A stretch of 64,000 nucleotides of DNA from an uncultured Candidatus Saccharibacteria bacterium (lineage in GTDB: Bacteria; Patescibacteriota; Dojkabacteria; SC72), in the NCBI GenBank assembly GCA_964610125.1, contig CAZSUV010000001.1:120035-184034 (forward strand). Reading direction: 5' to 3'. The notes below the pieces were generated by a model. It searched no databases. It worked only from the letters and a program-made list of their open reading frames with translations, and was not told the origin of the DNA. This document shows, one piece after another, positions 11,286-63,817 of the stretch (position 1 is the stretch's first letter; every line of letters begins with the position of its first letter). The position numbers were made by a program, and so were the translations under genes.

Positions 11286-11296
11286 TTATATTAATA

Positions 11297-40210: not shown

Positions 40211-40792
40211 ATGATAACTAGAGAAAGATGTATGCAGTTAATAGATAAATATGTGACTACCCCATGGCTTAAACTACATATGAAGGAGAGCGACATTATA
40301 ATGCAAGCTGTAGCCAATAGGCTTGGGGAGCATGAAGAAAAATGGGGTCTATCTGGTTTACTTCATGATTTAGATTTTGACTATGTAGGTAAGGATCCTG
40401 CAAGGCATGTGGTTGAGTTTGATGATATTTTAAAAATGGAGAATCTTGAAGTTGGGAAAGATATAGACAAGGATGTGTATCATGCGATTAAGGCTCACTA
40501 TGAAGAGAATCCTAAGGTACCTGAGAACAGAGAGAATAACTTAGATTATGCTTTGTCCGCTTCTGAGAACTTATCTGGTTTTTTAGTGGCTTGTGCTTTG
40601 GTTATGCCAGATAAGAAGATTGCGACTGTTACTTCTGATACGGTTTTAAGGAAGTTAAAGAAGAAGGAATTTGCGAAGGGTGTTAGAAGAGATTTGATAC
40701 AGGATATTGAAAAAACGGGTATATCTTTAGAAGAATTTATTGATATATCTTTAGATGCTATGAAGGCTAGGGCTAGTGAACTAGGGCTTTAA
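40211..40792 (+). CDS. HD-domain phosphohydrolase
   Basis: H...LLHDLD motif; 193 aa. Confidence 0.65.
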   Translation: MITRERCMQLIDKYVTTPWLKLHMKESDIIMQAVANRLGEHEEKWGLSGLLHDLDFDYVGKDPARHVVEFDDILKMENLEVGKDIDKDVYHAIKAHYEENPKVPENRENNLDYALSASENLSGFLVACALVMPDKKIATVTSDTVLRKLKKKEFAKGVRRDLIQDIEKTGISLEEFIDISLDAMKARASELGL

Positions 40793-40815: not shown

Positions 40816-40889
40816 CGGGGCGTAGTTCAGATGGCTAGAGCGCTTGCATGGGGTGCAAGAGGTCGCACGTTCAAGTCGTGTCGCCCCGA
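40816..40889 (+). tRNA. tRNA-Pro (anticodon GGG), no encoded CCA
   Basis: Manual cloverleaf: C1:G72 with A73 (bacterial tRNA-Pro identity), acceptor CGGGGCG/CGCCCCG, D-arm GTTC/GAGC, anticodon stem CTTGC/GCAAG with loop ATGGGGT, T-arm GCACG-TTCAAGT-CGTGT. Confidence 0.8.
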
Positions 40890-40902: not shown

Positions 40903-41769
40903 CTAGTTATTGAATGATTTCTCAATATCTCTTCTTATGGATTTTGCAATATCGGAAGAATCTTTTATTCCTATTCCGCAACTATCAAGGGCCAATTTCG
41001 CTCTAACTCCCTCTAAATATATCTCATAGAAGTCGAGTGGTTTTGTTACAATTTCTTTAATCTTTTTGAAACTATCGATCGAAAAGGGTGTCAGTAAATT
41101 CAAGTCTAGAGGATCTACTAAATTATTGATTCCACTTCTTAAGATATTCTCGTGTGTTCTGGAATTAATACCTTTCTTAGCTAATTGCTGGGTATAATGT
41201 AAAAGAAGATCTTTTCGTGGATTATCATTTATCTTTTCTATACCTTTCATATAACCAAGTAATGAGTTCTTGAGCGGTTGTATATGCTGTGTCTCTAATT
41301 TTTCTATTCCCCAAAGAGCTAAATTACATGATCTAATCAAAGAGTTCGCCGATTGGGGGCTTAGGATAGTTTCTTTCTTATGGATTTCTTTCATGTCAAC
41401 ATTTATTAATCCTTGGTTTAAAGCTGTTGGAAACATATCTCCAATTTCCCCTTGAGGAGGAATTCCTTTTGAATATGATTCAAATGCCGCAAGCCGAAAT
41501 TCAATTACCCTATCAATATCAAATATCGCATCTATATATGCTACTTGCTCTGGCTCAGAATATAGCTGTTCTAATCTCTCCTGATATGTTTCCGAAGTAT
41601 CATCTTCTCTTAAAATCGATTGCTCATACTTTTCGCCATATTTCTTTTGATCTTCTTCTAAATGAAATTGAATTAACTCAGGAGTTGTAGCTAAAGCTTT
41701 CGCCAATGAGACTATGTCTCCTGTATTGGGATCTTGAGTACTAGAAGAACTATCCACAGGATCTGCCAT
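40903..41769 (-). CDS. Hypothetical cytoplasmic protein, 288 aa
   Basis: Intact ORF immediately downstream of tRNA-Pro on the opposite strand. No recognisable domain. Confidence 0.5.
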   Translation of the reverse strand: MADPVDSSSSTQDPNTGDIVSLAKALATTPELIQFHLEEDQKKYGEKYEQSILREDDTSETYQERLEQLYSEPEQVAYIDAIFDIDRVIEFRLAAFESYSKGIPPQGEIGDMFPTALNQGLINVDMKEIHKKETILSPQSANSLIRSCNLALWGIEKLETQHIQPLKNSLLGYMKGIEKINDNPRKDLLLHYTQQLAKKGINSRTHENILRSGINNLVDPLDLNLLTPFSIDSFKKIKEIVTKPLDFYEIYLEGVRAKLALDSCGIGIKDSSDIAKSIRRDIEKSFNN

Positions 41770-41851: not shown

Positions 41852-42673
41852 TTGATATATAATTTGAAAGTAAATATTAATTTCTTTAATATTCAAATGG
41901 AAAAAAACAAAAAACTGTTACTCATAATCATAGGGATAATCTTCTCACTTTGTATACTCATACTCCCAGTAATCTTCCTCATTAGATTAACAACATCAGA
42001 AGTAAAAAATCTTGTAAGTGATAATAGTAAAACCATAACCAATTCAGAAGAAATAGAAAAGAAAGTAGAAGTATCCCAAAGCGAAGCATGGATATCTGCT
42101 TTCAGTACTGAAGAAGTACATGATACAAAAGATTTAGCACATGTAAAAATATGGGTAAATGCAAACCTCTTCCATATGGATGCAATAACCAGTTACACAA
42201 TAAAAAATATTAAGGTAGAAGGATACAAAAAAGGCAAAGTAGCAATCGTAAAACCAGGGCATATCAGTAACACGCTCTCTTCCTACAATTATGTCTGGGG
42301 ACCATATGAAGATGAAATGAAATCGGCAGAAATTAAGGATAGTGGAAAAACCCTAACCTTTGATGTAGTAGAGATAGCCCATTACTATGATGAAGTCTCA
42401 AGATCTGGAACCTCTATGCCAACATGGGGCATTTTTCTAAAAGAATTAGGGGAATACAATTACAGAAAGATAATGGATAGCTCAAATTTGTTTGAAAGTG
42501 AAAAAATCCTGGAATACGCAGATGTTGAACCAGATGATATCAATATATCTTTTTCATTTGATGTAGAAATGGTATTCGAAGATGGTACTAAGTGGGTAAA
42601 AAGATTCTCTGCGGAATTAGATGGTGCAAAGATTGTAGAAAACAAAAGCTATATGGTTGATCTTAGCTACTAG
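41852..42673 (+). CDS. Membrane-anchored protein, 273 aa, unknown function
   Basis: N-terminal TM helix and a soluble domain. Confidence 0.5.
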   Translation: MIYNLKVNINFFNIQMEKNKKLLLIIIGIIFSLCILILPVIFLIRLTTSEVKNLVSDNSKTITNSEEIEKKVEVSQSEAWISAFSTEEVHDTKDLAHVKIWVNANLFHMDAITSYTIKNIKVEGYKKGKVAIVKPGHISNTLSSYNYVWGPYEDEMKSAEIKDSGKTLTFDVVEIAHYYDEVSRSGTSMPTWGIFLKELGEYNYRKIMDSSNLFESEKILEYADVEPDDINISFSFDVEMVFEDGTKWVKRFSAELDGAKIVENKSYMVDLSY

Positions 42674-42730
42674 GTTAACAAATGCATGGGAATATCGTAT
42701 AGTTAATAACTAAACTGTACCCTGCCCAAA

Positions 42731-44134
42731 ATGCAAAAAGAATATATTCAGATAGGAAATCCTAATGTCTTTAATGGCCAATATATGTTGGCTGTATTTA
42801 GATTAGAAGGATACGATAGCTCGTTAGTAGATATTGCAAGCGAAGTAGCTGCAGAATCATCTACAGGATCATTTGTTAAGATAGGAACAGCAACCGCTTT
42901 TTCAGAAAGCCTAGATGCTTTGGTATATCGAATAGATGAGAAGAATAACCTGGTATGGATAGCATATCCATGGAGAATATTTGACCGAGGAGGTAATGTT
43001 CAAAACATCATGACCTTCATCGCTGGTAATGTCTTTGGTATGGCAAGTGTAAAAGTGTGTAAGATATTGGATGTATATTTCCCACCACAGATGTTAGTAC
43101 AGTACGATGGACCAGAATATACCATTGATGATATGAGGAAGTATCTAAATATTCAGGAGAGACCAGTATTTGGAAGTATCATTAAACCAAAGATAGGTTT
43201 AACATCATCCGAATATGCAGAACTTTGCTATGATTTCTGGTCAGGTGGTGGTGATTTTGTTAAAAATGATGAACCCCAAGCAGATCAAGATTTCTGTCCT
43301 TACGACAAGATGGTACAAGATGTTAAGCATGCAATGGACAGAGTAGAACAAGAAACAGGTAAAACTAAGGTTCACTCTTTCAATATATCCTCTTCCGATT
43401 ACGATACCATGATTAAAAAAGCAGACTATATCCAATCTGTAATGAAACCAGGAAGCTATGCTTTCTTAGTAGATGGTATAACCGCAGGATGGATGGCGGT
43501 ACAAACCATTAGAAGAAAATATCCAAATGTATTCTTGCACTTCCATAGAGCAGGGCATGGTGCATTTACTAGAGATGAAAATCCAATAGGGTATACAGTT
43601 CCAGTATTGACCAAGTTTGCTAGACTAGCAGGTGCTTCAGGTATTCATACGGGTACTGCAGGTATCGGTAAGATGGCAGGATCTCCAAAGGAAGATGTCA
43701 TGGCAGCAAATCATTCCCTTAGATTATATTCAGAGGGTGATTACTTCAAACAGATCTGGTCAGAGATTCCAGAAAAAGATGCAGATCTACAATTAGCTAT
43801 ACAGAAAGAAGCTCAAGGAGAAGATTACAGTAATCTTGGATATTGGAGAATAACTAAGAAAATGTGCCCAATTATCTCTGGTGGTTTAAACCCATTACTA
43901 GTAGGAGAATTCATAGATACAGTGGGAACTCAGGACTTCATAACTACAATGGGAGCTGGAGTACATTCTCATCCAATGGGAACAAAGGCTGGAGCAACTG
44001 CAGTCTTACAAGCATATGAGGCATGGAAGCAGAAAATCTCATTAGAAGAATATGCTAAGGACAAAGAAGAACTGAGGGTGGCTATAGATTTCTATACCAA
44101 GCACGAAGTCCCACATCCTGATAAACAGGTTTAG
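42731..44134 (+). CDS. rbcL: Ribulose-1,5-bisphosphate carboxylase/oxygenase large subunit, form II/III-like
   Basis: 467 aa with RuBisCO active-site motifs: IKPKIGL (carbamylated Lys region), GGGDFVKNDE (Mg site), HFHRAGHG, GGLNP, MGAGVHSHPMG. No small-subunit gene nearby. Confidence 0.85.
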   Translation: MQKEYIQIGNPNVFNGQYMLAVFRLEGYDSSLVDIASEVAAESSTGSFVKIGTATAFSESLDALVYRIDEKNNLVWIAYPWRIFDRGGNVQNIMTFIAGNVFGMASVKVCKILDVYFPPQMLVQYDGPEYTIDDMRKYLNIQERPVFGSIIKPKIGLTSSEYAELCYDFWSGGGDFVKNDEPQADQDFCPYDKMVQDVKHAMDRVEQETGKTKVHSFNISSSDYDTMIKKADYIQSVMKPGSYAFLVDGITAGWMAVQTIRRKYPNVFLHFHRAGHGAFTRDENPIGYTVPVLTKFARLAGASGIHTGTAGIGKMAGSPKEDVMAANHSLRLYSEGDYFKQIWSEIPEKDADLQLAIQKEAQGEDYSNLGYWRITKKMCPIISGGLNPLLVGEFIDTVGTQDFITTMGAGVHSHPMGTKAGATAVLQAYEAWKQKISLEEYAKDKEELRVAIDFYTKHEVPHPDKQV

Positions 44135-45147
44135 TCAAAGAGACCAGTAATGGATTTTCTTTGGTTTACTCGGCTAATAGCCTCTGCAAAATAGCTCGCA
44201 ATTGAAACTTCTTTAAACCATTTTGCAGATTTCATAAATTCTTTGGAATGGTATGTACTGTCTGTTCCGATAACCAAATCTAAGTATCCATTCTCATATG
44301 CTTCTTGAAATCTTTCTTTTGCTGGGCCATTGAAAAGTGCGTGTGTGCAAACAGCGATGACTTTCTTTGCTCCCATATTCTTTGTCTCTTCTAGTGCTTT
44401 TACTAATGTTCCACCAGTACAAATCATGTCATCAACAATATATACATCCTTACCTTTTACATCACCCAATATGGACATCTTATCTACAGTATTAGCTTTA
44501 CAATAATTTCTAGCTTTGTATGAGAATGCGATATCTGTTTTCAAAGTTTGTGCATAGTGATTGGCACGTTTTGCACCACCTAAATCGGTAGGCATGATGA
44601 CGGTATTCTCTTTGTCCTCAATCATTTTTTTCAATACGGGAATCAAAACATATCCACCCATAAGGTTATCGATTTTTGCCCTTCTGAAAAATCCTTGGAT
44701 TGCGGAGTTATGTAAATCTATTGTAACTACATGATCTACACTTCCATCTCCTTCCAATTCATATGCGATTCTTGCTGCAGTAATTCCTTCTCTTCCGGAC
44801 TGTTTATCTTGTCTTGCATATGGATATGAAGGTAATACTGTGGTTATTCTTTCTGCATCACATCTTCGGCATGCGTCTACCATGGTATACAATGCCCTTA
44901 GATTTTCATCTGTTGATCGACCCTCTGAGTGATTTTCACAATCTTGGATAATGAAGACGTCCTTCCCTCTAATACTTTCGTTGATGACTGTTTTCAGTTC
45001 GGTACTTGCAAAATGCATCTCTTCTGAATCAATGAGGTGTACCTCTTCTCCATGCTTCTTCTTTAATTCCTTTTCTATTCTCTTCGCAAAACTTAATCCA
45101 GATGCACACGCTAATATTGAAAGTGGAGCTTTGGGTGTAGGAGTCAT
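44131..45147 (-). CDS. prs: Ribose-phosphate pyrophosphokinase (PRPP synthetase)
   Basis: GKDVFIIQD, YARQD, HVVTIDLHNSAIQGFF, DDMICTGGTL (PRPP-binding) align along the whole length with Prs; 338 aa. Convergent with rbcL, with 4 nt overlap. Confidence 0.85.
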   Translation of the reverse strand: MTPTPKAPLSILACASGLSFAKRIEKELKKKHGEEVHLIDSEEMHFASTELKTVINESIRGKDVFIIQDCENHSEGRSTDENLRALYTMVDACRRCDAERITTVLPSYPYARQDKQSGREGITAARIAYELEGDGSVDHVVTIDLHNSAIQGFFRRAKIDNLMGGYVLIPVLKKMIEDKENTVIMPTDLGGAKRANHYAQTLKTDIAFSYKARNYCKANTVDKMSILGDVKGKDVYIVDDMICTGGTLVKALEETKNMGAKKVIAVCTHALFNGPAKERFQEAYENGYLDLVIGTDSTYHSKEFMKSAKWFKEVSIASYFAEAISRVNQRKSITGLFD

Positions 45148-45223: not shown

Positions 45224-45808
45224 ATGGGAAATACTATGTCAAAGACTTTAGAGAACTTAACAAAGGCATTTATAGGGGAGAGTCAGGCTAGAAATAGATA
45301 TACCTTTTACTCTAGTATTGCTAGAAAAGAGGGATATATTCAGATATCACAAATTTTTGAAATGACTGCGACTCAAGAGAAAGAGCATGCTAATTGGTTG
45401 ATGAAAATGATTCAGACATTGAAAGAGGATGTTAATGGTCTCAAGGTTGAGGCTGATGCAAACTTTACAATGGGTACTACACAAGAAAATCTGAAAGCGG
45501 CGATTGAGGGTGAGATGTATGAGAACAAAGATATGTATCCTGAATTTGCTAAGGTTGCAAGAGAAGAAGGGTTTGAAGATATTGCGAAAAGATTAGAGTC
45601 TATTGCTATTGCTGAAGGTCATCATGCAGAGAGATATACTAAGCTTCATACTGTATTAACCGATGGGACTATATTTAAAAAAGATACTGAGGTTATATGG
45701 ATTTGTTCTGAGTGTGGTTATGTGTTCGTAGGTAAAGAACCTCCTATGGAATGTCCATCATGTGGTCATGCACAGGGTTTTTACTATCTAATGAATGAGG
45801 AGTATTAG
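45224..45808 (+). CDS. rbr: Rubrerythrin
   Basis: N-terminal ferritin-like diiron domain (E...EKEH, E...EGHH); C-terminal rubredoxin CSECG...CPSCGH. Confidence 0.85.
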   Translation: MGNTMSKTLENLTKAFIGESQARNRYTFYSSIARKEGYIQISQIFEMTATQEKEHANWLMKMIQTLKEDVNGLKVEADANFTMGTTQENLKAAIEGEMYENKDMYPEFAKVAREEGFEDIAKRLESIAIAEGHHAERYTKLHTVLTDGTIFKKDTEVIWICSECGYVFVGKEPPMECPSCGHAQGFYYLMNEEY

Positions 45809-45885
45809 TATATTTCTATCTATAATTATACTAAAAATAATTTTTGTATACAATATTGACTCAAAATAGGGTTGGGTGGTAATAT

Positions 45886-47724
45886 TTGCCTTATAACATA
45901 AGCCTTTTTAATATGGAGAAAGAAAAGGATATTACGTTCGGTGAGTATATAAAAATTTCAAAGTGGGTGCTAAGTATAAGTTTTAAAATATCTCGAAGTA
46001 GTGAGATTATTCGGTTAGTTGGACAAATTTTCAATAATCTTGGCTTCTTGTACAACACATATATCATCTCAAAGATTATCGATGCTTTAGTAAAAGAATC
46101 TACATCTGTCGATGCTACGATACAAAGATTGCTCCCATATCTTGGAATTTTATTAGTTGTTAATACCATATTTGTAGTAATCGCAGAGCTAAGAGGTTAC
46201 GCTGATAGAAAGATGAATCAGTTATCTATGCCATTTTATGAAAAAATGAAATATGACAAAGTTCGGGAATTGGGATTGCAGACTCTAGAATTTCCGGATA
46301 TCGCAAATTTAAAGCAGAAAGTAGAGGAATGGTTAGGGCTAATTGGTAACATCGATAGCTCGATTGTGAGCATAATCTCTTTCTTAATTCGAATTGTTGT
46401 ATCTGGAATTGTGCTTTACAGTACGGTGCCTATCTTGATACCTATTGTTCTTCTAGCTTCAATTCTCTTCTATTTCAATAAACGCAAATATTTTAAAATG
46501 GAATTTGACTGGATTCGAAGAGAAGACCATATTTCTGGAAGGCGTAAGCATTACAAAATATCGACGGATCTATCAAATATTAATACAATAGGTGAAATTT
46601 CAATAACTGGAGCACACGACTATCTAGATGCTAAATTTCAAAAGTTTTTTGATTACTACGCTTGGGGATTTCTTCGAATAATCAAAAAGGAATATTTTGC
46701 GGATTTCTTATTGACCTTATTGAGCAACGTTGTAACAGTTTTAGGATACATTCAGGTCTTTGTTATATATCTTGCAAAATCAATTACTATTGGTAATGTT
46801 ACTTTCTATTTAGGTACCATAGATGGGTTTTATTCTGGTATTGAAAGATTCTTTAGAGAATTTGTAATATATCGAGATAATATGCTGAAAATCAAGGATG
46901 TATATACTTTCTTTCAATTGGAGTCAAAAATTAAAGATGGAAGTTATGCTCTTCCTCGATTCGTAACTCCTCCTGCAATAGATATTAAAAACTTGTCTTT
47001 TCATTATCCCAACAACAAAATAAAGATATTGAAGAATTTTTCCTTAACAATTAAGGCAGGAGAAAAAATTGCAATTGTTGGTGAAAATGGAGCGGGCAAA
47101 TCAACCTTAGTAAAGATGCTAGCTAGAGTATATGATCCTCAAGAAGGGGAAATATTGATAAACGAAAGAAATATTAAAGAAATTAAACTTGATGATTGGT
47201 ACAAAAACTTGGGTATACTTTTCCAAGACTTCAACTTCTATGGAGAGTTAAATGCACAAGAAAATATATATATTGGAAAATCAGTTAAGCCCATGGATAT
47301 GGATAAAGTTAAAGAGGCGTCTCATAACGCAGATGCCTATGATTTTATTCAAAAATATCCTAAAAAGTTTGAAACTATTATGAACGAAAGGTATGAGGGA
47401 GGTATACAACCAAGTAAAGGTCAACAACAGAAGATAGCTATAGCTAGGTTCTTCTACAGAGATGCTCCGGTTGCCATATTCGATGAGCCTACCTCTGCTA
47501 TAGATGCAGAATCAGAGTATAAGATATTCAATAAGATATATAAGTTCTTTGATAATAAAACTGTTATCATCATTTCCCATAGATTTTCTACTGTAAGAAA
47601 TGCAGACAGAATAGTTGTACTAGATCAGGGGAGAATTGTAGAAGAAGGTTCTCATCAAGAGCTTCTAGCTATGGGTGGAAAATATGCTCAAGCATTCAAG
47701 AAACAGGCTGAGGGATATTTGTAA
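45886..47724 (+). CDS. ABC transporter fused permease/ATP-binding protein (exporter type)
   Basis: 6-TM domain then NBD: Walker A GENGAGKST, signature PSKGQQQK, Walker B IFDEPTSAID; 612 aa. Confidence 0.85.
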   Translation: MPYNISLFNMEKEKDITFGEYIKISKWVLSISFKISRSSEIIRLVGQIFNNLGFLYNTYIISKIIDALVKESTSVDATIQRLLPYLGILLVVNTIFVVIAELRGYADRKMNQLSMPFYEKMKYDKVRELGLQTLEFPDIANLKQKVEEWLGLIGNIDSSIVSIISFLIRIVVSGIVLYSTVPILIPIVLLASILFYFNKRKYFKMEFDWIRREDHISGRRKHYKISTDLSNINTIGEISITGAHDYLDAKFQKFFDYYAWGFLRIIKKEYFADFLLTLLSNVVTVLGYIQVFVIYLAKSITIGNVTFYLGTIDGFYSGIERFFREFVIYRDNMLKIKDVYTFFQLESKIKDGSYALPRFVTPPAIDIKNLSFHYPNNKIKILKNFSLTIKAGEKIAIVGENGAGKSTLVKMLARVYDPQEGEILINERNIKEIKLDDWYKNLGILFQDFNFYGELNAQENIYIGKSVKPMDMDKVKEASHNADAYDFIQKYPKKFETIMNERYEGGIQPSKGQQQKIAIARFFYRDAPVAIFDEPTSAIDAESEYKIFNKIYKFFDNKTVIIISHRFSTVRNADRIVVLDQGRIVEEGSHQELLAMGGKYAQAFKKQAEGYL

Positions 47725-47783: not shown

Positions 47784-47990
47784 ATGAAAGTATCTATAGA
47801 CAAGACAAAATGTGCAGTATGTGGATCATGTGTTGCCATATGTCCTGAAGTATTTGAAATGAGAGATGATGGAGTAGTTGATGTTAAGCCTGAGTATCAG
47901 GGAGTAGAAATTACAGATCCTCAAATACAAGAAAAGGTAAGACAAGCGTTTGATGCATGTCCTGCTATGGCTATAGTTATAGAGGAGTAG
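47784..47990 (+). CDS. fdx: Small 4Fe-4S ferredoxin
   Basis: 68 aa, CAVCGSCVAICP...C motif. Confidence 0.75.
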   Translation: MKVSIDKTKCAVCGSCVAICPEVFEMRDDGVVDVKPEYQGVEITDPQIQEKVRQAFDACPAMAIVIEE

Positions 47991-50091: not shown

Positions 50092-50119
50092 CCCAGGACT
50101 GACCTAGGTCAGTCCTGGG
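50092..50119. repeat. Perfect 28 bp palindrome CCCAGGACTGACCTAGGTCAGTCCTGGG (REP-like/IS end hairpin, left)
   Basis: Seen directly. The core GGACTGACCTAGGTCAGTCC recurs at 50625-50644 on the other side of the transposase gene. Confidence 0.85.
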
Positions 50120-50159
50120 GTTCATTCAGATTTAATAACCCAGTGCTACAATTGGGTTT

Positions 50160-50636
50160 ATGAAGAAAATCCCAGTCATCAAACTGTATAGAAGTGAAAA
50201 CTTCTACCATATATACAATAGAGGCAATAACAAAGCCTTAATTTGCCGTACCTATAAGGATTACATTGCTCTTAGAGGATTGATGTATAGATTTATCAAG
50301 GAAAAGAGGCTACTTCTTGTATGTTACTGCTTCATGCCAAACCATTTCCATCTAATTATCAAACTTAGAGATGATTTGGAGGGGATTTCAAAATTCATGC
50401 GGGCATATATGACATCATATGTCATGTATTTCAATAGAAGATATCGAAGAGTTGGACATCTTTTTCAAAGTCCATTTCAAGCGAGAAGAATTGAAGATGA
50501 TAGGGATTTACATAAGGTAATAGAATACATTAAACAGAACCCAGTGGAAGCAGGATTAATCTCATCTAAAACAGGCCTCAAATACCGATGGTTATTTGTA
50601 AAAAGGACATTCTATAGGAGGGGAGGACTGACCTAG
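50160..50636 (+). mobile_element. tnpA: HUH Y1 single-strand transposase gene (IS200/IS605 TnpA or RAYT-like), 158 aa
   Basis: HuH motif PNHFHLII; catalytic Tyr helix EYIKQNPVEAG; size typical of Y1 transposases; bracketed by identical palindromes. Confidence 0.75.
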
Positions 50637-50645
50637 GTCAGTCCT
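50624..50645. repeat. Perfect 22 bp palindrome AGGACTGACCTAGGTCAGTCCT (right copy). It overlaps the tnpA stop codon.
   Basis: Seen directly. It matches the core of the left palindrome. Confidence 0.85.
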
Positions 50646-51802: not shown

Positions 51803-51920
51803 TGTTTTTTGTATGATAATTTACTACATATATAGTAGCACAAATAGGTTTCCATTTGTCACATCCCGATGGTATGATGATATTTGCTATTGGGTATTTT
51901 TCTATTTATAATCTACCAAC

Positions 51921-52685
51921 ATGCTTAACTACTTTGAACTTCTTTGGCAGTTCATAACAACAGATTTCAAACTCAGATACAAGAACTCTTACTTAGGCAT
52001 CATATGGATTGTCCTAAAACCTTTAGCAATGTTCAGCATCATCTATGTAATATGGTCAAACATTTTCAAAATGGGACCAGAATACAAGATGGGATTGCTT
52101 CTAGGAATCATCATGATGAACTTCTTTAGTGAAGCCATAATGATGGGGATGGATTCGTTAATGTCAAAAGCCGGAATCATATTGAAGATTAAATTCCCAA
52201 GAGAAGTGGTTATATATAGTGGAGTAACAATCGCTCTCATAGACTTCGTTTTCAACATGGTAGTCTTTGGTATCTTTTGTATATTTACTCCAGTTACTAC
52301 AACAGTGCTCGGTGTTTTACTTTTCCTTATGGCAATAGCAAGTATCTTCATACTTACACTTGGAATAAGTCTTTTCTCTAGTATCATATTCATCAAACTT
52401 AGAGATATCCATAACTTGGTAGAAGTTGGTTTACAATTGATCTTTTGGGCAACTCCGATCTACTATACATTAACAATGATGCCTGAGAATATACAAAAAA
52501 TCATAAAGCTCAATCCATTAACATTGATTGTCACATATGCCAGAAAAGGATTAATTACAGGAAACACTGTAAGAACAGAAGATTTCTTACAACTAGGTAT
52601 CGTTTTCTTAATCTGTTGCTTAGTGCTTTTACTTGGAAATATCTTCTTCAAGAAAAAAGTTTCTAAAATAGCCGAATACTTCTAA
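51921..52685 (+). CDS. ABC-2 type polysaccharide/teichoic-acid export permease (Wzm/TagG-like)
   Basis: 6-TM ABC-2 permease; LKYKNSYLGIIWIVLKPL signature; 254 aa. Confidence 0.8.
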   Translation: MLNYFELLWQFITTDFKLRYKNSYLGIIWIVLKPLAMFSIIYVIWSNIFKMGPEYKMGLLLGIIMMNFFSEAIMMGMDSLMSKAGIILKIKFPREVVIYSGVTIALIDFVFNMVVFGIFCIFTPVTTTVLGVLLFLMAIASIFILTLGISLFSSIIFIKLRDIHNLVEVGLQLIFWATPIYYTLTMMPENIQKIIKLNPLTLIVTYARKGLITGNTVRTEDFLQLGIVFLICCLVLLLGNIFFKKKVSKIAEYF

Positions 52686-53425
52686 TGGATGAAATCAAAC
52701 CAATAATACATATAAAGAATGTAAAAAAATCTTTCTTCTTGCCACAGGAGAAGCATGATACGCTTGTGGAATTTTTGCATAATCCTCTTAGACTATTTAA
52801 GCCAGCAGGGGAACAATATTCAGTACTTAAAGATATTGATTTGGATATATATCCAGGAGAATTTGTTGGAATAATGGGTAGAAATGGATCAGGGAAATCT
52901 ACATTGTTAAAAATAATGGCAGGGATATATGAACCAACAAGTGGATCTGTAAAAGTTAATGGGAAATTAGTTCCATTTCTAGAACTAGGGGTAGGATTTA
53001 ATCCAGAGCTATCAGCAAGGGAAAATGTATATCTTAATGGCGTTATCTTAGGAATGAAGAGAAATGTTTTAAAGGAAAAATATCATGAGATTGTAGAATT
53101 TGCAGAATTGGAAAAATTCATGGAAGTTCCGCTTAAGAATTTCTCATCGGGTATGCAGGTTAGATTAGCATTCTCAATTGCCATAATGGCAGATGCTGAT
53201 GTATATCTTCTTGATGAGGTATTAGCAGTAGGCGATGTGGCTTTCCAAGAAAAGTGTTTTAACGTATTTAGAAAGTACAAAGCAGATGGAAAGACTGTTG
53301 TTTTAGTTACACATTCACCAGAGTCAGTAAAAGGTTTCTGTGATAGGGCAGTGTTTATCAAGGATGGCTTAATACAACCAACTAACTCTGTTGACGAAGT
53401 TATACAAGCATACATAAATGGATAA
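52685..53425 (+). CDS. ABC transporter ATP-binding protein (Wzt/TagH-like)
   Basis: Walker A GRNGSGKST, signature FSSGMQVRLAF, Walker B YLLDEVLAVGD; translationally coupled to the permease. Confidence 0.85.
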   Translation: MDEIKPIIHIKNVKKSFFLPQEKHDTLVEFLHNPLRLFKPAGEQYSVLKDIDLDIYPGEFVGIMGRNGSGKSTLLKIMAGIYEPTSGSVKVNGKLVPFLELGVGFNPELSARENVYLNGVILGMKRNVLKEKYHEIVEFAELEKFMEVPLKNFSSGMQVRLAFSIAIMADADVYLLDEVLAVGDVAFQEKCFNVFRKYKADGKTVVLVTHSPESVKGFCDRAVFIKDGLIQPTNSVDEVIQAYING

Positions 53426-54650
53426 AAGTACATTAAGGACCAGACACAATTGGATTTTGTTAAAAAGGATTGGAATCAATATTCTTGAGAAATTGCATAT
53501 TAAGGATTTCTTAAGAAGAAGTTTGGACCGAAATACTCCTGTGTTTAGAGTCTCATTAGATATTAATCCCAAACTAAAATCCATAATTGTGCTTCCAAAT
53601 ATGCCTTGGGGTTACAGGAAACAAAGACCTCAACAGATATTCTCAAGATTAGCTAAGAAAGGTTACAACATTTTCTACATTTCTCCTTTGACCTCAGACA
53701 AGGAATATATGGTGGAATTGGAGAAGAATATATATGAGGTACATTTGAAGACTAAGGTAAGTGGTGATGTTTTGAGAGATTTCCATTTGGATATGGAAAA
53801 TCAAAAAATGTTTGTTGAATCTTTAAATACTTTGTTAGGAGAATATGTTAAGAAGGATACTTTGTTGTTTGTACTTCATCCTGTATGGAAAAATGTTGCT
53901 TTTGAGATTGAGAATGTTAAGAGGATATATGATTTGATGGATCTGTATTCTGGGTTTGATAATGCAAGAGAAGAATTAGTGAAGGATGAGGAGGAATTGA
54001 TTATTAATTCTGATATTGTCATAACTACCGCTCAAAATCTTTTTGATCATGCGAGTGGTTTGAACAAAAATACGTATTTGATTAGGAATGGATGTGACTA
54101 TGAGGAGTTTAATAAATTGGAGAAGAATGGGATTCTTGATTCACTGCAGGACAGGCCTATTATTGGTTTCTATGGTGCTATTAATACTTGGTTGGATGCG
54201 GATATTTTAGATGCGGTTATAAAGGCTAACAAGGACAAATATTTTGTATTTCTTGGGGCAGTTAATACTGGAAATGTGGTTAAGTTGGGTAAGCATAGGA
54301 ATGTATTTTTCTTAGGTGAGGTTGGGCATGATGAGTTACCCGGCTATTTGGCATATTTTGATGTTTGTACTATTCCTTTTGTTTTGAATGATTTAATTAA
54401 GAGTACTAATCCTGTTAAGTTCTATGAGTATATTAGTTCGGGTAAGCCAGTGGTATCTGTTAGATTACCTGAGTTAGAACAATATTCCGATATTTGTTAT
54501 TTGTATGATAATGTTGAGGAATTTAGTAAGTATATATATGTGGCATTACATGACGATACAGAGGAATTAAAAAAGAAGAGAATGGGGGTGGCAAGTGAGA
54601 ATAGTTGGGATACCCGAGTTGGCGATATCTTAAAAGTTGTTATACAATAA
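53418..54650 (+). CDS. Glycosyltransferase, GT-B fold (GT4-like)
   Basis: 410 aa. C-terminal region with the E-x7-E-like donor-binding pattern (KFYEYISSGKPVV). Paralog of 59463..60752. Confidence 0.7.
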   Translation: MDKSTLRTRHNWILLKRIGINILEKLHIKDFLRRSLDRNTPVFRVSLDINPKLKSIIVLPNMPWGYRKQRPQQIFSRLAKKGYNIFYISPLTSDKEYMVELEKNIYEVHLKTKVSGDVLRDFHLDMENQKMFVESLNTLLGEYVKKDTLLFVLHPVWKNVAFEIENVKRIYDLMDLYSGFDNAREELVKDEEELIINSDIVITTAQNLFDHASGLNKNTYLIRNGCDYEEFNKLEKNGILDSLQDRPIIGFYGAINTWLDADILDAVIKANKDKYFVFLGAVNTGNVVKLGKHRNVFFLGEVGHDELPGYLAYFDVCTIPFVLNDLIKSTNPVKFYEYISSGKPVVSVRLPELEQYSDICYLYDNVEEFSKYIYVALHDDTEELKKKRMGVASENSWDTRVGDILKVVIQ

Positions 54651-54686
54651 ACATCAGATATTTAAAATTTCTGTAGATCTACAATT

Positions 54687-55421
54687 ATGTTCCATAAAAC
54701 TGATTTTGCAATAGTTACTCCAATGGCAAACGAGTCTGACGGATTTGATGAATTCATTGGTGCTATATCTAAAGTTTTAGACCTTTTAGAAAGCGGAAAA
54801 GTATATTTTGTGGTGGACAATGTTTCAAAAGATAATACATTAGAATTATGTAAAAAATTATCAAAAAAAGATTCGAGGTTTGTTACCGTTTGGGCTCCTG
54901 AGAATAGGAATGTTGTAGATGCATATATTCGAGGTTATCAGGAAGCTGTTAATAATGGCCATGAATTTATTATAGAAATGGATGCTGGGTTATCACATGA
55001 TCCAAGAGCAATACCAATGTTCTTAAGAGTTTTGAACGAAGGAAATGAATGTGCTTTTGGTAGTCGTTTTATATCAGGTGGATCTATTCAAGATTCTTCG
55101 TGGAAACGTTCACTCCTCTCAAAGGGAGGTACAACTTTATCCAATTTACTTCTTGGTACTACAATGCATGATATGACCTCGGGTTATCAAGGATTCCATG
55201 TAGATATTGTAAAGAGATTTCTAGCATATAAGCTTCTTTCTAAGGCTCATTTTTATCAAACAGAACTAAGATACTTGCTTCGTAAGACTAGATATATAGA
55301 AGTTCCAATACACTACAGATCTCCATCTCCAAGCGTATCAAAGAAAGCTATTAAGAACTCATTCCAAGTTCTATTTCACTACTTCTTCTTAAGATTAAGA
55401 TCAAAATCCGTTTCCATATAA
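54687..55421 (+). CDS. GT2-family glycosyltransferase (polyprenyl-phosphate sugar synthase, DPM1-like)
   Basis: FAIVTPMANESD...VVDNVSKDNT...; DxD-type motif; 244 aa. Confidence 0.75.
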   Translation: MFHKTDFAIVTPMANESDGFDEFIGAISKVLDLLESGKVYFVVDNVSKDNTLELCKKLSKKDSRFVTVWAPENRNVVDAYIRGYQEAVNNGHEFIIEMDAGLSHDPRAIPMFLRVLNEGNECAFGSRFISGGSIQDSSWKRSLLSKGGTTLSNLLLGTTMHDMTSGYQGFHVDIVKRFLAYKLLSKAHFYQTELRYLLRKTRYIEVPIHYRSPSPSVSKKAIKNSFQVLFHYFFLRLRSKSVSI

Positions 55422-55859
55422 ATGAACTATTTAGGAATCAAAGAAAAAATTGTCTCATTATCAAAAAAGGAAATAGTTATTGAAGGTATTAAATATCTTT
55501 TTGTAGGAGGAACCTGTACACTGCTTGATTTCTTGCTTCTTTATATTCTCAAAGATCATTTAGGAGTTAATTATGTAATTGCTTCAGGAATATCCTTTAG
55601 TGCAGGAGTTATTCTAAATTATTTTCTCTGTACATTATGGATTTTTAAAACAAGAATAATAAATAATCGTTATGGAGAATTTTTGATATATGTTGTTATC
55701 TCAGTAGTAGGTTTATTAATAAATACAGGTTTGATATGGTTATTTACTGAAATGTTTGGTATTCCAGTTTTGTTTTCAAAAGTTTTGGGAACACCAATTG
55801 TTTTAATCTGGAATTTCTTTGGTAGAAAATATTTGGCCCATACAATTAAAGTTAAATAA
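55422..55859 (+). CDS. GtrA-family membrane protein
   Basis: 145 aa, 4 TM; GtrA-like sequence (FLFVGGTCTLLDFLLLYIL). Typically partners GT2 polyprenyl-P sugar synthases. Confidence 0.75.
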   Translation: MNYLGIKEKIVSLSKKEIVIEGIKYLFVGGTCTLLDFLLLYILKDHLGVNYVIASGISFSAGVILNYFLCTLWIFKTRIINNRYGEFLIYVVISVVGLLINTGLIWLFTEMFGIPVLFSKVLGTPIVLIWNFFGRKYLAHTIKVK

Positions 55860-55869
55860 ATATAAAGAT

Positions 55870-56874
55870 ATGGAAAAAACATTTTTAGTTATTACATCAA
55901 TTGCTGACGATAAGCATCCTATCCTAAATTCCATAGCCAATGATGCTGCAAAAAATGATGTTCCATTTATTGTAGTTGGTGATACCAAGAGTCCTGATAA
56001 ATTTGAAATTAAAAATTGTGATTTCTATTCTGCCAATCGACAAGCAAGTTTGGATTTTGATCTTGCAAAAGTTCTTCCATTTAAGCATTATGCGCGTAAA
56101 AATATTGGTTACTTGATAGCTATGTCAAAGGGAGCAGAAACAATAATAGAAACAGACGATGACAATATTCCATTAGAAGGTTTTTGGAATAATCGTAGTA
56201 GAGAGGTAGAAGCGCATCTATTAAACGATCAAGGCTGGGTTAATGTATATAAATATTTTACGGAGAAATTAATATGGCCAAGGGGTTTTGCTCTGGAAAA
56301 TATACAAAAAGAACTTGTTAATATAGATACCATGCAAAAGGTTGATTGCCCAATACAACAGGGCTTGGCAGACGAGAACCCTGACGTGGATGCAATATAT
56401 AGATTAACATTACCTTTGCCGGTAACCTTTAATAAATCAGAGAATATAGCATTAGGAAAAAATTCTATTTGTCCTTTTAATAGCCAAAATACTACTTGGT
56501 TTAAGGAAGCTTTTCCTCTTATGTATCTTCCTTCTTATTGTAGTTTCAGAATGACAGATATATGGAGATCATTTGTAGCACAACGGGTTGCATGGACGTG
56601 TGGTTGGCCAATACTGTTTCATAATAGTACAGTAAGACAAGAGAGGAATGATCATAATTTGATGAAAGATTTCCGTGATGAGGTTTCAGGATATAATAAT
56701 AATGAGATGATTTGTCAAAGCTTAAAGGAACTTGATTTAAAAGAAGGCATTGAAAATATATCTCAAAATATGATTCTGTGTTATGAAAAACTTATTAGTT
56801 TAGAACTTGTTGGGAAAGAGGAGATGGAGTTGCTTAATTATTGGTTGAAGGATGTGACTAAATTGAATGATTAA
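55870..56874 (+). CDS. Putative GT-A-like glycosyltransferase (DxD motif), 334 aa
   Basis: The ATG at 55870 (MEKTFLV) is preferred over the track start 55819. ETDDDNIP matches a DxD motif. Soluble. Confidence 0.5.
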   Translation: MEKTFLVITSIADDKHPILNSIANDAAKNDVPFIVVGDTKSPDKFEIKNCDFYSANRQASLDFDLAKVLPFKHYARKNIGYLIAMSKGAETIIETDDDNIPLEGFWNNRSREVEAHLLNDQGWVNVYKYFTEKLIWPRGFALENIQKELVNIDTMQKVDCPIQQGLADENPDVDAIYRLTLPLPVTFNKSENIALGKNSICPFNSQNTTWFKEAFPLMYLPSYCSFRMTDIWRSFVAQRVAWTCGWPILFHNSTVRQERNDHNLMKDFRDEVSGYNNNEMICQSLKELDLKEGIENISQNMILCYEKLISLELVGKEEMELLNYWLKDVTKLND

Positions 56875-58177
56875 TAGAATTGAGATGAAATTCACATTGA
56901 AAAAGGAAACTTTATTAAATATATTTTATTTCTCATTCATATTTATTCTTACGTGGATATTTATAAAAAGTATAATATCTGGATTTGCGAAAGAAAGTTG
57001 GAATATAACCGAATTTTTGATCAATTATCAGGGAGGGTTTGTAAGAAGAGGGTTGCTTGGGGAAGTCTTACTTCATTTATATAACTATTTTGCTCTAAAT
57101 CCATACTTTATAATATTAGGTATTTGTGTGTTAGCATATGTTGTTTTGGCAACTTTCTTTCTTAAATCCTTTATCAAGAAAGGATATACAATATTTATTC
57201 TTCCATTTGTTTTTTTTCTTGGGAATCCAATTATAAATGATGTTTGGGTAAGAAAAGATGTTTTGCTTATCTTACTTTTGATATCTGCGATATATTTTGT
57301 AACAAGAAAATCAAATTGGTATATTATTTTAGCCAACATTTTTTTGATTTTTGGTCTACTAATTCATGAATCTATTGGTTTCTTTAGCTTACCAATATTA
57401 TTGCTGATAATCTTTTACAAAGATAAAGTCTTTGATGCTATGAAGCAATCACGGATAAGAAGGATTTTTATTTCAATTGCTAAACTATTTCCTGCAATCT
57501 TAACATTCTTTTGCACATTTTATTATAGCGGTTCTTTATCTATCTCCAATAAAATATGGGAATCTTGGAAACATGTAGAATTCCCAATTCAATCAATTGA
57601 TAATACCGTTATCCCTGGTGCAATAGATGGGATATCATGGTCATTTAAGAGAGGACTTTCTTTGGCAATAGATACATTAAAAAACTTTCAAGATGGAATT
57701 TATGCTCCGCTTGCATGGGTTTTGATTATTATTTTAATCTATTTTTTGTTAACAAACACAGACAAATTTAATTTTAAGATTTTGAAGTATCAACCTTTTA
57801 AGAACTTTAATAAAACAAATATCTCGAATATTCTCCTATTTCAACTGATGACGATTAGTCCTCTTTTTGTACTTGGTTGGGATTATAGTCGTTGGATATT
57901 TTTCTGGGTTACTTCATCATTTGCATTAATTGTTTTAATCTCAGAAGAAAAGCTTTCTGCTATATTTCCGCAAATCCTTACATCAATTAGTACGAAGATA
58001 AACAAGATTCTTAATTTATTTTTTAGTCAATCAAAAAGCTTTTTATTTCTAATATTGATACTTATTGGTATTCCAACATATAGTTGGTCCTTAATTGGAT
58101 TTGTAAACTCAAGTGCTTTTGTAATCTTATTAAAATTTTTCTCAATAATGATAGAGTCTGTCAAAACTTTGATATAA
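56867..58177 (+). CDS. Polytopic membrane protein (putative polymerase or GT-C-like glycosyltransferase)
   Basis: 436 aa, more than 10 TM helices, embedded in the glycan cluster. Confidence 0.5.
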   Translation: MINRIEMKFTLKKETLLNIFYFSFIFILTWIFIKSIISGFAKESWNITEFLINYQGGFVRRGLLGEVLLHLYNYFALNPYFIILGICVLAYVVLATFFLKSFIKKGYTIFILPFVFFLGNPIINDVWVRKDVLLILLLISAIYFVTRKSNWYIILANIFLIFGLLIHESIGFFSLPILLLIIFYKDKVFDAMKQSRIRRIFISIAKLFPAILTFFCTFYYSGSLSISNKIWESWKHVEFPIQSIDNTVIPGAIDGISWSFKRGLSLAIDTLKNFQDGIYAPLAWVLIIILIYFLLTNTDKFNFKILKYQPFKNFNKTNISNILLFQLMTISPLFVLGWDYSRWIFFWVTSSFALIVLISEEKLSAIFPQILTSISTKINKILNLFFSQSKSFLFLILILIGIPTYSWSLIGFVNSSAFVILLKFFSIMIESVKTLI

Positions 58178-58185
58178 AGAATAGC

Positions 58186-59400: not shown

Positions 59401-59462
59401 AATACAGAACTGAATAATTTATGCTCAAGTATATATTAATCCTGGACTAGTGTCATTCTCAG

Positions 59463-60752: not shown

Positions 60753-60770
60753 GTTTTATAAAGTTATAAT

Positions 60771-61799: not shown

Positions 61800-61814
61800 T
61801 TTAGCTAATTAAGC

Positions 61815-62507: not shown

Positions 62508-62519
62508 TTGTAAATAAAT

Positions 62520-63011
62520 TTGAATAAAGCGATTTTTTTGGATAGAGATGGTACTTTGAATGTAGAGAAAAATTACTTGTATAAGATAGAAGATTTCGAG
62601 TTTATACCTGGCATGCCTGAAGCTATAAAAAGATGGAATGAATTGGGATACAAGGTTATAGTTGTAACAAACCAGGCTGGAGTGGCAAGAGGTTACTATT
62701 CTGAGGATGACGTTATGAGTCTGCATACATATATAAATGAGTTGCTAATTAAATCAGGAGCCTATATTGATGCCTTCTATTACTGTCCTCACCACCCAAT
62801 TCACGGAATTGGAAAATATAAGGTAGAATGTAGTTGTAGAAAACCAAAAACAGGAATGTTAGAACAAGCAATATTAGATTTCGATATTAATGTAGCGCAG
62901 TCATATTTATTTGGTGACCATGATTCGGATATAGAAGCAGGGGAAAAAATGAAAATAAGGTCTTATAAAGTTGATGGATATTTATTCAATATAGAAAAAT
63001 ATAAATTTTAG
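62520..63011 (+). CDS. gmhB: D,D-heptose 1,7-bisphosphate phosphatase (HAD, zinc-binding)
   Basis: [11 protein letters not shown] (motif I); CPHHP...[10 protein letters not shown] (GmhB Zn site); GDHDSD. Apparent TTG start. Confidence 0.8.
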
Positions 63012-63026
63012 AAAAGATACATCATT

Positions 63027-63761: not shown

Positions 63762-63817
63762 AAATATTTTGTATGCCCCTATAGAGTTATTTATTGTCAT
63801 AATATATACTTATAGAA

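Follow-up and report, generated by a model that had tools for sequence, protein, structure and literature searches.

We find that a window of 64,000 nucleotides from a genome of the Dojkabacteria (candidate division WS6, CPR/Patescibacteria) encodes what is, judged by its residues, a form II/III RuBisCO large subunit of the active type, with every catalytic residue kept and without a small subunit. The gene, rbcL (467 aa), occupies positions 42731..44134 of the forward strand and meets prs, a PRPP synthetase gene at 44131..45147 of the reverse strand, tail-to-tail. The two frames are exactly where the initial annotation of this DNA had placed them. The explanation in which we have high confidence, taken as a whole, is that the enzyme is competent, that it has a salvage role, and that its adjacency to prs is incidental. 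The nearest RbcL sequences are those of the MAG Loclat_bin-19700 (98% identical) and of candidate division WS6 bacterium GW2011_GWC2_36_7 (95% identical), and the more distant matches, at 60-81% identity, include many MAGs labelled Dojkabacteria.

Form and Active Site of the RuBisCO Large Subunit

The rbcL frame matches Pfam PF00016 RuBisCO_large (1e-87) and PF02788 RuBisCO_large_N. Its form was assigned from form-specific HMM scores, the ranking of scores against PDB chains, and a diagnostic insertion. Among the NCBIfam models, NF010002 scores 543 bits, above its cutoff of 489, while the form III model TIGR03326 (330.7 bits vs a cutoff of 497.45) and NF003252 (327 vs 438) fail, and the form I models are below their cutoffs. 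The PDB ranking is headed by form II/III chains, with 9dyp at 1033.6 bits over the full length, 8vgs at 659 and 5mac at 648. Then come form II at about 314 bits, form III at about 212-219, form I at about 150-202, and a RuBisCO-like protein (RLP) at 157. The initial annotation had left the choice between form III and form II/III; the second of these is borne out by NF010002, the PDB ranking and the insertion, while form III is not sustained.

The insertion consists of 29 aa, S344-W372 (SEIPEKDADLQLAIQKEAQGEDYSNLGYW; 43760..43846, forward strand). In HMMER alignments it is missing from the form II enzyme 9RUB (R. rubrum) and from 7T1J and is gapless across 5MAC and 8VGS. PMC5113843 characterises form II/III by some 29 additional residues compared with form II, which fall between catalytic-site residues, after the K314 loop and before the S383-G385 motif, and describes the 29-aa insert for archaeal, SR1 and WS6 enzymes of this form. 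Since S344-W372 matches the insert described there, the RbcL of the window has the distinguishing feature of form II/III.

The active site was mapped by a MAFFT alignment onto spinach RbcL, using a reference identical at 475/475 positions to PDB 1IR1/8RUC. All three catalytic motifs that had been read from the DNA (KPKIGL, GGGDFVKNDE and HFHRAGHG) are intact in the translation, as IIKPKIGLT, GGGDFVKNDE and LHFHRAGHG. The second of these (aa 172-181; 43244..43273, forward strand) supplies the lysine for carbamylation, K178, and two Mg ligands, D180 and E181; their spinach counterparts are K201, D203 and E204. Identity to spinach extends to 16 of the 21 mapped positions: in spinach numbering, E60, N123, K175, K177, K201, D203, E204, H294, R295, H298, H327, K334, S379, G380, G381 and G403. 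The five differences are T65S, W66F, T173I, L335M and G404A, and all recur among 19 aligned form II/III sequences. T173I and L335M are invariant in that set, and T65S and G404A are common to many of its members. Position 66 is F in a minority (3/19) and N in 14.

A comparison of these positions had been suggested as a way of excluding a form IV RLP. Such a protein, or some other non-carboxylating paralogue, would account for the weak, sub-threshold resemblance of RbcL to the MtnW and OiaX RLP models. However, the RLP models reach only 167, 130 and 93 bits against cutoffs of 409-700, the full catalytic and Mg-binding set is present, the protein carries the II/III insertion, and a near-identical solved chain was named ribulose-1,5-bisphosphate carboxylase by its depositors. 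We give this reading almost no probability, and the residue check has in effect refuted it. Carrying an intact active site, RbcL is very probably competent for catalysis, the confidence being that which we place in the explanation as a whole.

The absence of a small subunit was also read correctly at the outset. No RbcS family member is found in the flanks of rbcL, which are a hypothetical membrane protein and prs, or among the frames covered by Pfam/NCBIfam scans or by Pfam matches of relatives.

The PRPP Synthetase and the Convergent Junction

The frame facing rbcL was described as a full-length ribose-phosphate pyrophosphokinase, and it is one. Prs is a 338-aa class I enzyme with Pfam matches to PF13793 Pribosyltran_N, PF00156 Pribosyltran and PF14572 Pribosyl_synth, and it scores 288 bits on TIGR01251 against a cutoff of 113. 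Its best PDB matches are the ribose-phosphate pyrophosphokinases 4s2u and 7xmu (178 bits). Alignment to 4s2u pairs TIDLH with TVDLH, YKAR with DKRR and DDMICTGGT with DDMIDTGGT; the flexible loop has K-x-R where 4s2u and 7xmu have KRR. The marks of a class I PRPP synthetase are thus all present, namely both domains, the catalytic DLH histidine, the loop Lys/Arg and the DDxxxTGGT loop that binds PRPP and ribose-5-phosphate. Prs has widespread homologues of 336-338 aa, and those with a source name are from Dojkabacteria. As part of the overall explanation, it is very likely that prs belongs to a conserved backbone and encodes a PRPP synthetase of the ordinary, housekeeping kind.

The two genes overlap tail-to-tail by 4 nt, as first noted. 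Read directly from the sequence, the junction is tTTAG (44131..44134), in which 44132-44134 is the RbcL stop TAG and the reverse complement of 44131-44133 is the Prs stop TAA. Within the overlap, therefore, are only the two stops and a single base from each gene's final sense codon. This is not unusual in the window, about 93% of which is coding. Five of its 12 convergent junctions overlap, and in four more the genes are at most 10 nt apart. The position of the rbcL segment accounts for the tail-to-tail contact with prs, given that convergent genes of this genome commonly touch or overlap.

The distribution of the pair is narrow. It was found only in six non-redundant close relatives, which have RbcL 84-98% identical and are syntenic with the window over more than 15 kb. 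Among 77 other form II/III loci, no Prs match at E<=1e-3 was found near rbcL; the sequence extends 1.5 kb or more downstream in 67 of these loci, and 5 kb or more on either side in 42. In a clade at 77-81% RbcL identity, rbcL lies between infB and rpsO. Other Dojkabacteria have prs in unrelated contexts, and in some of them rbcL and prs are on one contig but more than 10 kb apart. Adjacency in phylogenetically separate lineages was thus not observed. Finally, clustering of all the frames within 10 kb on either side of 84 form II/III rbcL loci yielded no conserved pathway partner. The recurrent neighbours are only lineage-specific housekeeping genes, such as infB, nusA, rpsO, type IV pilus genes, and probable rarA and cysS, the last two named from their translations.

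The initial annotation implied that the juxtaposition of rbcL and prs is meaningful. In its developed form, the idea is that the two genes are a functional unit in which Prs makes PRPP from ribose-5-phosphate, and PRPP is converted to ribose-1,5-bisphosphate and then to RuBP, either directly or by way of adenine phosphoribosyltransferase and AMP phosphorylase. Selection would then maintain the pairing, with reciprocal transcriptional interference as one conceivable means. The exact 4-nt overlap is indeed kept in all six relatives while their Prs proteins range from 79 to 97% identity, and this retention could reflect some selective value. In addition, the PRPP-to-(AMP)-to-R15P-to-RuBP chemistry has already been proposed in PMC5113843, and Dojkabacteria are reported there to be without a pentose-phosphate pathway, so that ribose-5-phosphate would need such an outlet. 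Against this, rbcL and prs are convergent and so cannot be co-transcribed, overlapping convergent ends are common in the window, and the pair is missing from all 77 of the other loci, including the Dojkabacteria in which both genes are present but well separated. Synteny over more than 15 kb means that shared ancestry suffices to explain the conservation of the pair in the six relatives. Moreover, at this very place in the backbone the related contig L089 carries prs and no rbcL, which identifies prs as a backbone gene. We therefore consider the functional unit unlikely, and the implied meaning of the juxtaposition does not hold up. That the adjacency is incidental, and lends no support to functional coupling or to a dedicated PRPP-to-RuBP module, is by contrast very likely, again at the confidence of the whole explanation.

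Genomic Setting of rbcL

The rbcL gene is at the downstream end of a variable segment whose upstream edge is a tRNA-Pro(GGG) gene (40816..40889, forward strand; ARAGORN). This tRNA gene is present in all the close relatives. The backbone around the segment has the order DHH, serS, miaA and others, then DUF3048, HAD, tRNA-Pro, prs, ferredoxin and HIT. L089 has the same backbone, with a prs 71% identical, and is without the HD gene, the variable frames, rbcL, the rubrerythrin gene and the ABC gene; in it, the 3' end of tRNA-Pro is 2 nt from the prs stop. Relative to L089, this lineage may have gained the segment, or that of L089 may have lost it. No integrase was found, and neither were att-like copies of the tRNA-Pro 3' end or repeats at the edges of the rbcL segment.

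A more elaborate scheme can be drawn from this setting. The 3' end of tRNA-Pro(GGG) would be a hot spot at which the rbcL segment was captured, in such a way that it overlaps prs end to end at the 3' side, and the overlapping convergent transcripts would switch the cell reciprocally between PRPP synthesis and RuBP carboxylation, that is, between anabolic nucleotide salvage and ribose catabolism in a clade of Dojkabacteria without a pentose-phosphate pathway. The sole evidence that speaks for it is conserved synteny among close relatives, and we think the scheme as a whole very unlikely.

Two frames of the segment have no assigned family. The first, of 288 aa (40903..41769, reverse strand), is found in the window and in L001, an identical Logan contig where it was also called; it has no Pfam or NCBIfam match and no tblastn homologue in the relatives L002, L005, L009, L010 and L012. 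The second (41852..42673, forward strand) encodes a membrane-anchored hypothetical protein directly upstream of rbcL. Its true start is likely at 41897, giving the 258 aa called in L001. It has no Pfam or NCBIfam match either, and is found upstream of rbcL at 57-85% identity in L002, L009, L010 and L012 but not in L005. The 57-nt gap between it and rbcL contains a promoter-like site, TTAACA-17-TATAGT (42675..42703, forward strand), which agrees with the consensus at 10 of 12 positions; it is a weak candidate, since shuffled versions of the region contain more sites of this kind.

On the other side of the tRNA gene, an HD-domain protein of 193 aa is encoded at 40211..40792 of the forward strand (Pfam HD, 22.4 bits; no PDB or NCBIfam match). 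The gene is in all the relatives with the rbcL-prs pair and is missing from L089. We considered it as an accessory of the pathway because homologues 32% identical occur in two Pacearchaeota loci, less than 10 kb from rbcL. There, however, the homologue comes straight after a lysyl-tRNA synthetase gene and not after AMP phosphorylase, and so the idea was dropped.

A rubrerythrin and a ferredoxin had been placed just downstream of the pair. Both are real. The rubrerythrin (45224..45808, forward strand; NF045767, 239.7 bits vs a cutoff of 200) is an accessory gene, missing from L002 as well as L089. The ferredoxin, a single-cluster 4Fe-4S protein of 68 aa (47784..47990, forward strand; Pfam Fer4_15 and Fer4_13), is 3.6 kb away, past an ABC ATPase/permease gene, and is a backbone gene conserved beside prs in L089.

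Pathway Partners and Physiological Role

The initial annotation had found neither AMP phosphorylase nor R15P isomerase in the window, and we agree. Every frame of at least 290 aa was either scanned against Pfam/NCBIfam or judged by the precomputed Pfam matches of a relative's homologue, and none of them is an AMP phosphorylase (Glycos_transf_3), an R15P isomerase (IF-2B) or a phosphoribulokinase (PRK). We also applied regular expressions to the window and all the loci, for KHSxGG of AMP phosphorylase, GADR... of e2b2, and the PRK P-loop. The only matches were ABC ATPases and PRK-like frames in the archaeal loci L078 and L084; this is a weak negative. According to Wrighton et al. [quoted passage not shown]

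Analogy with the archaeal pentose-bisphosphate (AMP) pathway, together with the published reconstruction for the phylum, suggests that RbcL most likely carboxylates RuBP made from nucleotide ribose, with the partner genes outside the window. AMP phosphorylase would convert NMP to ribose-1,5-bisphosphate, and R15P isomerase would convert that to RuBP. RbcL would then carboxylate the RuBP to two molecules of 3-phosphoglycerate, which would feed lower glycolysis and the production of acetate and ATP in an anaerobic fermenter without upper glycolysis or a pentose-phosphate pathway. The salvage context proposed at the outset is the published interpretation for exactly this phylum: Wrighton et al. 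place form II/III RuBisCO in Dojkabacteria, with a proposed nucleotide/AMP-salvage role and a PRPP-to-AMP-to-R15P-to-RuBP route. The suggestion that PRPP is a precursor of RuBP is likewise discussed explicitly there and is not new.

It could be asked instead whether RbcL operates in an autotrophic cycle like that of Calvin-Benson-Bassham (CBB), with a PRK encoded elsewhere in the genome. PRK is found in some CPR bacteria (with form III-c) and in some archaea (PMC6389311), the PRK-like frames of L078 and L084 adjoin their II/III rbcL genes, and a PER form II/III enzyme is described in PMC5113843 as having complemented Rhodobacter for CO2-dependent growth. But no PRK is within the window, and the same paper describes CPR genomes with II/III enzymes as without PRK and WS6 genomes as lacking most of central carbon metabolism. 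We regard such a cycle as highly improbable here and retain the salvage role.

Significance

The observation is a correct identification of already known biology. The form II/III RuBisCO of Dojkabacteria, its likely role in passing nucleotide ribose to 3-phosphoglycerate in symbionts with tiny genomes, and its lateral mobility were known beforehand, and a protein nearly identical to this RbcL already has a solved structure. A modest addition is the location of rbcL in an indel-prone stretch beside tRNA-Pro. Sister clades of Dojkabacteria have rbcL at different loci, between HAD/tRNA-Pro and prs here and between infB and rpsO elsewhere, which fits on a fine scale with the lateral transfer of RuBisCO genes described in PMC6389311. 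The case also counsels care: where about 93% of a genome is coding, an overlap of 4 nt between the tails of two genes cannot be taken as a sign that they are functionally coupled, however suggestive the metabolic role of the neighbour.

Comparison with Known Systems

The best match in the PDB is the 468-aa ribulose-1,5-bisphosphate carboxylase of PDB 9DYP/9DYR, which aligns to RbcL over its full length (1033.6 bits) and is near-identical. It shares the active-site residues, the glycine-rich motif MGAGVHSHP and the 29-aa insertion, and differs by scattered substitutions, chiefly near residues 25-35 and in the C-terminal tail. The WS6 form II/III RuBisCO of Wrighton et al. 2016 (PMC5113843) agrees in phylum, in form and, for two WS6 sequences, in the 29-aa insertion. 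Its background is also alike, with a small fermentative genome without PRK and a proposed nucleoside/AMP pathway. The closed WS6-1 genome (GWF2_39_15; locus L035, RbcL 62% identical) has a 48-aa insertion instead of the 29-aa one. Neither the prs neighbour nor the position of rbcL adjoining tRNA-Pro is found in the accessible part of that paper.

The Methanococcoides burtonii form II/III enzyme (5MAC) shares the catalytic residues and the insertion, without gaps, and scores 647.7 bits over residues 2-456. It differs in having an archaeal host, in being noticeably more divergent than the CPR relatives, and in the sequence of the insertion, which is poorly conserved. Form II (R. rubrum 9RUB and R. 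palustris 4LF1, about 290-315 bits) is the closest canonical form. Like RbcL, it has Ile at position 173 and GKM(E/A)G as its loop-6 motif and lacks a small subunit, but it is without the 29-aa insertion and works with PRK in the CBB cycle. The form III enzyme of Thermococcus kodakarensis (1GEH) is distant in sequence, at 212 bits, and RbcL scores under the cutoff of the form III model TIGR03326. The function of the Thermococcus enzyme, using RuBP derived from nucleotide ribose through AMP phosphorylase and R15P isomerase, is the one that we propose for RbcL.

Identity of the RuBisCO gene

The rbcL gene (42731..44134, +) encodes 467 aa with Pfam RuBisCO_large (1e-87) and RuBisCO_large_N matches, and no small-subunit gene was found near it. 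The initial annotation had proposed a form II/III-like large subunit from motifs that are indeed found in the translation (IIKPKIGLT, GGGDFVKNDE and LHFHRAGHG). Among the NCBIfam models, NF010002 scores above its cutoff (543 bits; cutoff 489), and the form III equivalog TIGR03326 (331 bits; cutoff 497) and NF003252 (327 bits; cutoff 438) score below theirs. The top PDB match is 9DYP/9DYR at 1033.6 bits, near-identical across the full length, followed by 8VGS (659 bits) and 5MAC (648 bits). The other forms trail in this ranking: form II at about 314 bits, form III at about 212–219, form I at 202 or less, and a RuBisCO-like protein (RLP, form IV) at 157.

The active site was mapped by MAFFT alignment onto spinach RbcL, using a reference identical at 475/475 positions to PDB 1IR1/8RUC. 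In spinach numbering, the window protein keeps E60, N123, K175, K177, K201, D203, E204, H294, R295, H298, H327, K334, S379, G380, G381 and G403; its K178 corresponds to the carbamylated lysine K201. There are five differences: T65S, W66F, T173I, L335M and G404A. T173I and L335M are invariant across 19 aligned form II/III sequences, and T65S and G404A are common to many of them. At position 66, F is a minority state, present in 3/19, with N in 14/19. Since the catalytic and Mg-ligand residues are kept and the OiaX and MtnW RLP models score only 167, 130 and 93 bits against cutoffs of 409–700, a form IV protein is ruled out. Judged from sequence, the Dojkabacteria genome carries an intact gene for a form II/III carboxylase, whose product is predicted to be active.

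The rbcL–prs junction

The convergent neighbor, prs (44131..45147, −), encodes 338 aa with Pfam Pribosyltran_N, Pribosyltran and Pribosyl_synth matches; both ORFs lie where the initial annotation had drawn them. Its call of a ribose-phosphate pyrophosphokinase is borne out. Prs scores 288 bits against TIGR01251 (cutoff 113), its best PDB matches are the ribose-phosphate pyrophosphokinases 4s2u and 7xmu (178 bits), and the DLH motif, a K-x-R opposite KRR and the DDMICTGGT loop align with these structures. By these motifs and scores, Prs is an ordinary class I PRPP synthetase. Homologues of 336–338 aa are widespread, and all the matches with a named source are from Dojkabacteria.

Direct reading of the junction gives tTTAG. 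RbcL ends with TAG at 44132-44134 and Prs with TAA, read on the complement of 44131-44133, so that the 4-nt tail-to-tail overlap consists of the stop codons plus one base of each last sense codon and nothing more. This overlap is unremarkable: the window has 12 convergent junctions, 5 of them overlapping and another 4 with gaps of 10 nt or less, and is about 93% coding. A weak promoter-like site in the 57-nt gap 5' of rbcL is not significant. That overlapping convergent rbcL and prs transcripts would be regulatory, in a lineage without a pentose-phosphate pathway, we regard as very improbable.

Recurrence of the pair

Functional linkage was judged by recurrence of the adjacency, with a tblastn search of all retrieved loci using the window Prs as query. 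Only six non-redundant relatives (L002, L005, L009, L010, L011 and L012), whose RbcL is 84–98% identical to that of the window, have the tail-to-tail pair. In the 77 further form II/III loci, Prs is never found beside rbcL, even at E ≤ 1e-3; the sequence extends 1.5 kb or more downstream of rbcL in 67 of these, and 5 kb or more to either side in 42. In the next clade, also Dojkabacteria (RbcL 77–81% identical), rbcL lies between infB and rpsO. In these loci (L007, L013–L021 and L023), rbcL is at about 10001–11389 within a nusA-infB-rpsO-pnp housekeeping cluster, a wholly different locus from that of the window. The prs contexts in other Dojkabacteria are likewise unrelated to the window's. In two other Dojkabacteria, rbcL and prs are apparently on one contig (163,439 and 320,735 nt), and in the former prs is more than 10 kb from rbcL. 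Unbiased clustering of all rbcL neighbors yielded only lineage-specific housekeeping genes.

How the adjacency arose

A 424-kb metagenomic contig, L089, has a Prs 71% identical to the window's and the same backbone gene order without rbcL. Before prs, the two share DHH, serS, a 187-aa gene, miaA, three hypothetical genes, DUF3048, a 340-aa gene and HAD; from prs onwards, they share prs, ferredoxin, HIT, an alpha/beta hydrolase, a DsbA-like gene and DUF8173. Missing from L089 are the HD gene, the variable ORFs and rbcL to one side of prs, and rubrerythrin and an ABC gene to the other.

The edge of this indel-prone stretch is a tRNA-Pro(GGG) gene called by ARAGORN at 40816-40889 (+), which is not listed by Rfam at its gathering score. 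It occupies the matching position in 6/6 pair-bearing relatives. In L089, the tRNA-Pro(GGG) is at 9014-9089 with its 3' end 2 nt from the prs stop, and in the window about 3.2 kb, rbcL included, separates the 3' ends of the tRNA and prs; the 2-nt gap identifies the 3.2-kb stretch as an indel relative to L089. It comprises a 288-aa ORF, a 273-aa membrane protein and rbcL. Its content varies among close relatives; in L005, TPR, CutA and ABC genes occupy it instead. The 288-aa ORF (40903-41769, −) has no family match and is found only in the window and an identical Logan contig (L001); the closest relatives have no homologue of it, not even L009 with its 98% identical RbcL. Neither an integrase nor an att-like repeat was found at the indel. 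Thus prs belongs to the backbone and rbcL to the accessory cargo next to a tRNA gene, and their contact is positional. The link between RbcL and Prs suggested in the initial annotation finds no support, given the six close relatives, the 0/77 other loci and the prs of L089 without rbcL.

Other neighbors and features of the window

The anaerobe-type neighbors of rbcL and prs are real: a rubrerythrin (45224-45808; NF045767, 239.7 bits, cutoff 200) and a 68-aa single-cluster ferredoxin supported by Pfam (47784-47990), with an ABC transporter gene between them. The rubrerythrin is missing from L002 (RbcL 91% identical) and, together with the ABC gene, from L089, so this anaerobe marker beside prs is itself variable. 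Within 45224-47724, the rubrerythrin and the adjoining ABC ATPase/permease gene are both accessory.

The product of the HD-domain gene (40211-40792, +; 193 aa) matches nothing in PDB or NCBIfam. All close relatives carry this gene along with rbcL, and L089 lacks it. Homologues 32% identical occur in Pacearchaeota (L071 19597-20190; L072 16057-16644) directly 3' of lysS, whose product is a LysRS of class II in L071 and of class I in L072, a placement that may point to a role tied to LysRS products such as Ap4A.

A 158-aa gene like Y1 (REP-associated tyrosine) transposases (50160-50636; NF047646, 59.8 bits, below the cutoff of 80) is flanked by two perfect copies, at 50095 and 50624, of the 22-nt palindrome AGGACTGACCTAGGTCAGTCCT, which has 0 matches in window shuffles. 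The span 50095-50645 has the appearance of a REPtron-like unit, here in a CPR genome. L002 and L009 have the gene; L005, L012 and L089 do not. A bacterial class A RNase P RNA (12657-12959, +; RF00010, 153.8 bits) is shortened, covering the whole 367-position model in just 303 nt. Short co-directional ORFs at the window start (83-11689) resemble a ribosomal protein cluster, in which only SecY (5372-6637) and RpoA (9344-10306) are confirmed. At the window end (51900-63800) is a cell-envelope sugar cluster. Its products include several glycosyltransferases and a STELLO-like GT, and also a heptose-7-phosphate kinase resembling HddA (60771-61799), whose 455 bits fall short of the equivalog cutoff of 600.

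Pathway partners and proposed role

Every window ORF of at least 290 aa was scanned with Pfam/NCBIfam or has a homologue in a relative with precomputed Pfam matches. This assigned, among others, SecY, RpoA, RNase Y, several aminoacyl-tRNA synthetases, Fmt, QueA, Tgt, glycosyltransferases and HddA, leaving a few without any family. As the initial annotation had noted for the first two, AMP phosphorylase, ribose-1,5-bisphosphate (R15P) isomerase and PRK are not among these ORFs. Absence from a 64-kb window says little, since partner genes are usually dispersed for form II/III; pathway genes are found together with RuBisCO less frequently, and less tightly, for other forms than for form III-c (PMC6389311).

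According to the literature, AMP phosphorylase and R15P isomerase would convert nucleotide ribose to RuBP, RuBisCO would carboxylate it to 3-PGA, and 3-PGA would feed substrate-level ATP formation. It is possible that Prs channels ribose-5-P to this route by way of PRPP, a phosphoribosyltransferase and AMP phosphorylase; the neighborhood gives no support for this. In two archaeal loci, a PRK/uridine-kinase-type P-loop ORF of about 330 aa lies near a form II/III rbcL, immediately downstream in L084 (11398-12393, +) and at strand-relative 4217-5233 (−) in L078. Its putative identity comes from the motif GDSGSGKTTF, and the arrangement recalls the archaeal PRK–RuBisCO pathway.

Comparison with known form II/III enzymes

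A scan of one genome per species gave 80 loci with an RbcL match, and relatives in the protein database number at least 3,800 at E ≤ 1e-50. The closest is 98% identical, from the uncultured-bacterium MAG Loclat_bin-19700, and the second is 95% identical, from candidate division WS6 bacterium GW2011_GWC2_36_7. Many Dojkabacteria-labelled MAGs are among the matches at 60–81%; beyond those are other Patescibacteria, DPANN archaea and Methanolobus. Jaffe et al. 2019 (PMC6389311) documented that these genes have been transferred laterally.

Wrighton et al. 2016 (PMC5113843) described the first WS6 form II/III RuBisCOs and proposed the name Dojkabacteria. In every CPR genome with RuBisCO, they found homologues of AMP phosphorylase and R15P isomerase, and no PRK. 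They proposed a route from nucleotide ribose through RuBisCO and 3-PGA to acetate and ATP. PRPP is already discussed there as a possible RuBP source, with PRPP→AMP→R15P→RuBP favored over thermal PRPP→R15P. The RuBisCO identification and physiological context in the initial annotation are correct and essentially the published interpretation of biology already known. The same source notes a 29-aa insertion as defining the archaeal, SR1 and WS6 form II/III enzymes. The window RbcL has this insertion as a 29-aa segment, S344-W372, in its C-terminal third that is missing from R. rubrum and other form II enzymes, and through it the protein aligns without gaps to 8VGS and to 5MAC, the form II/III enzyme of Methanococcoides burtonii.
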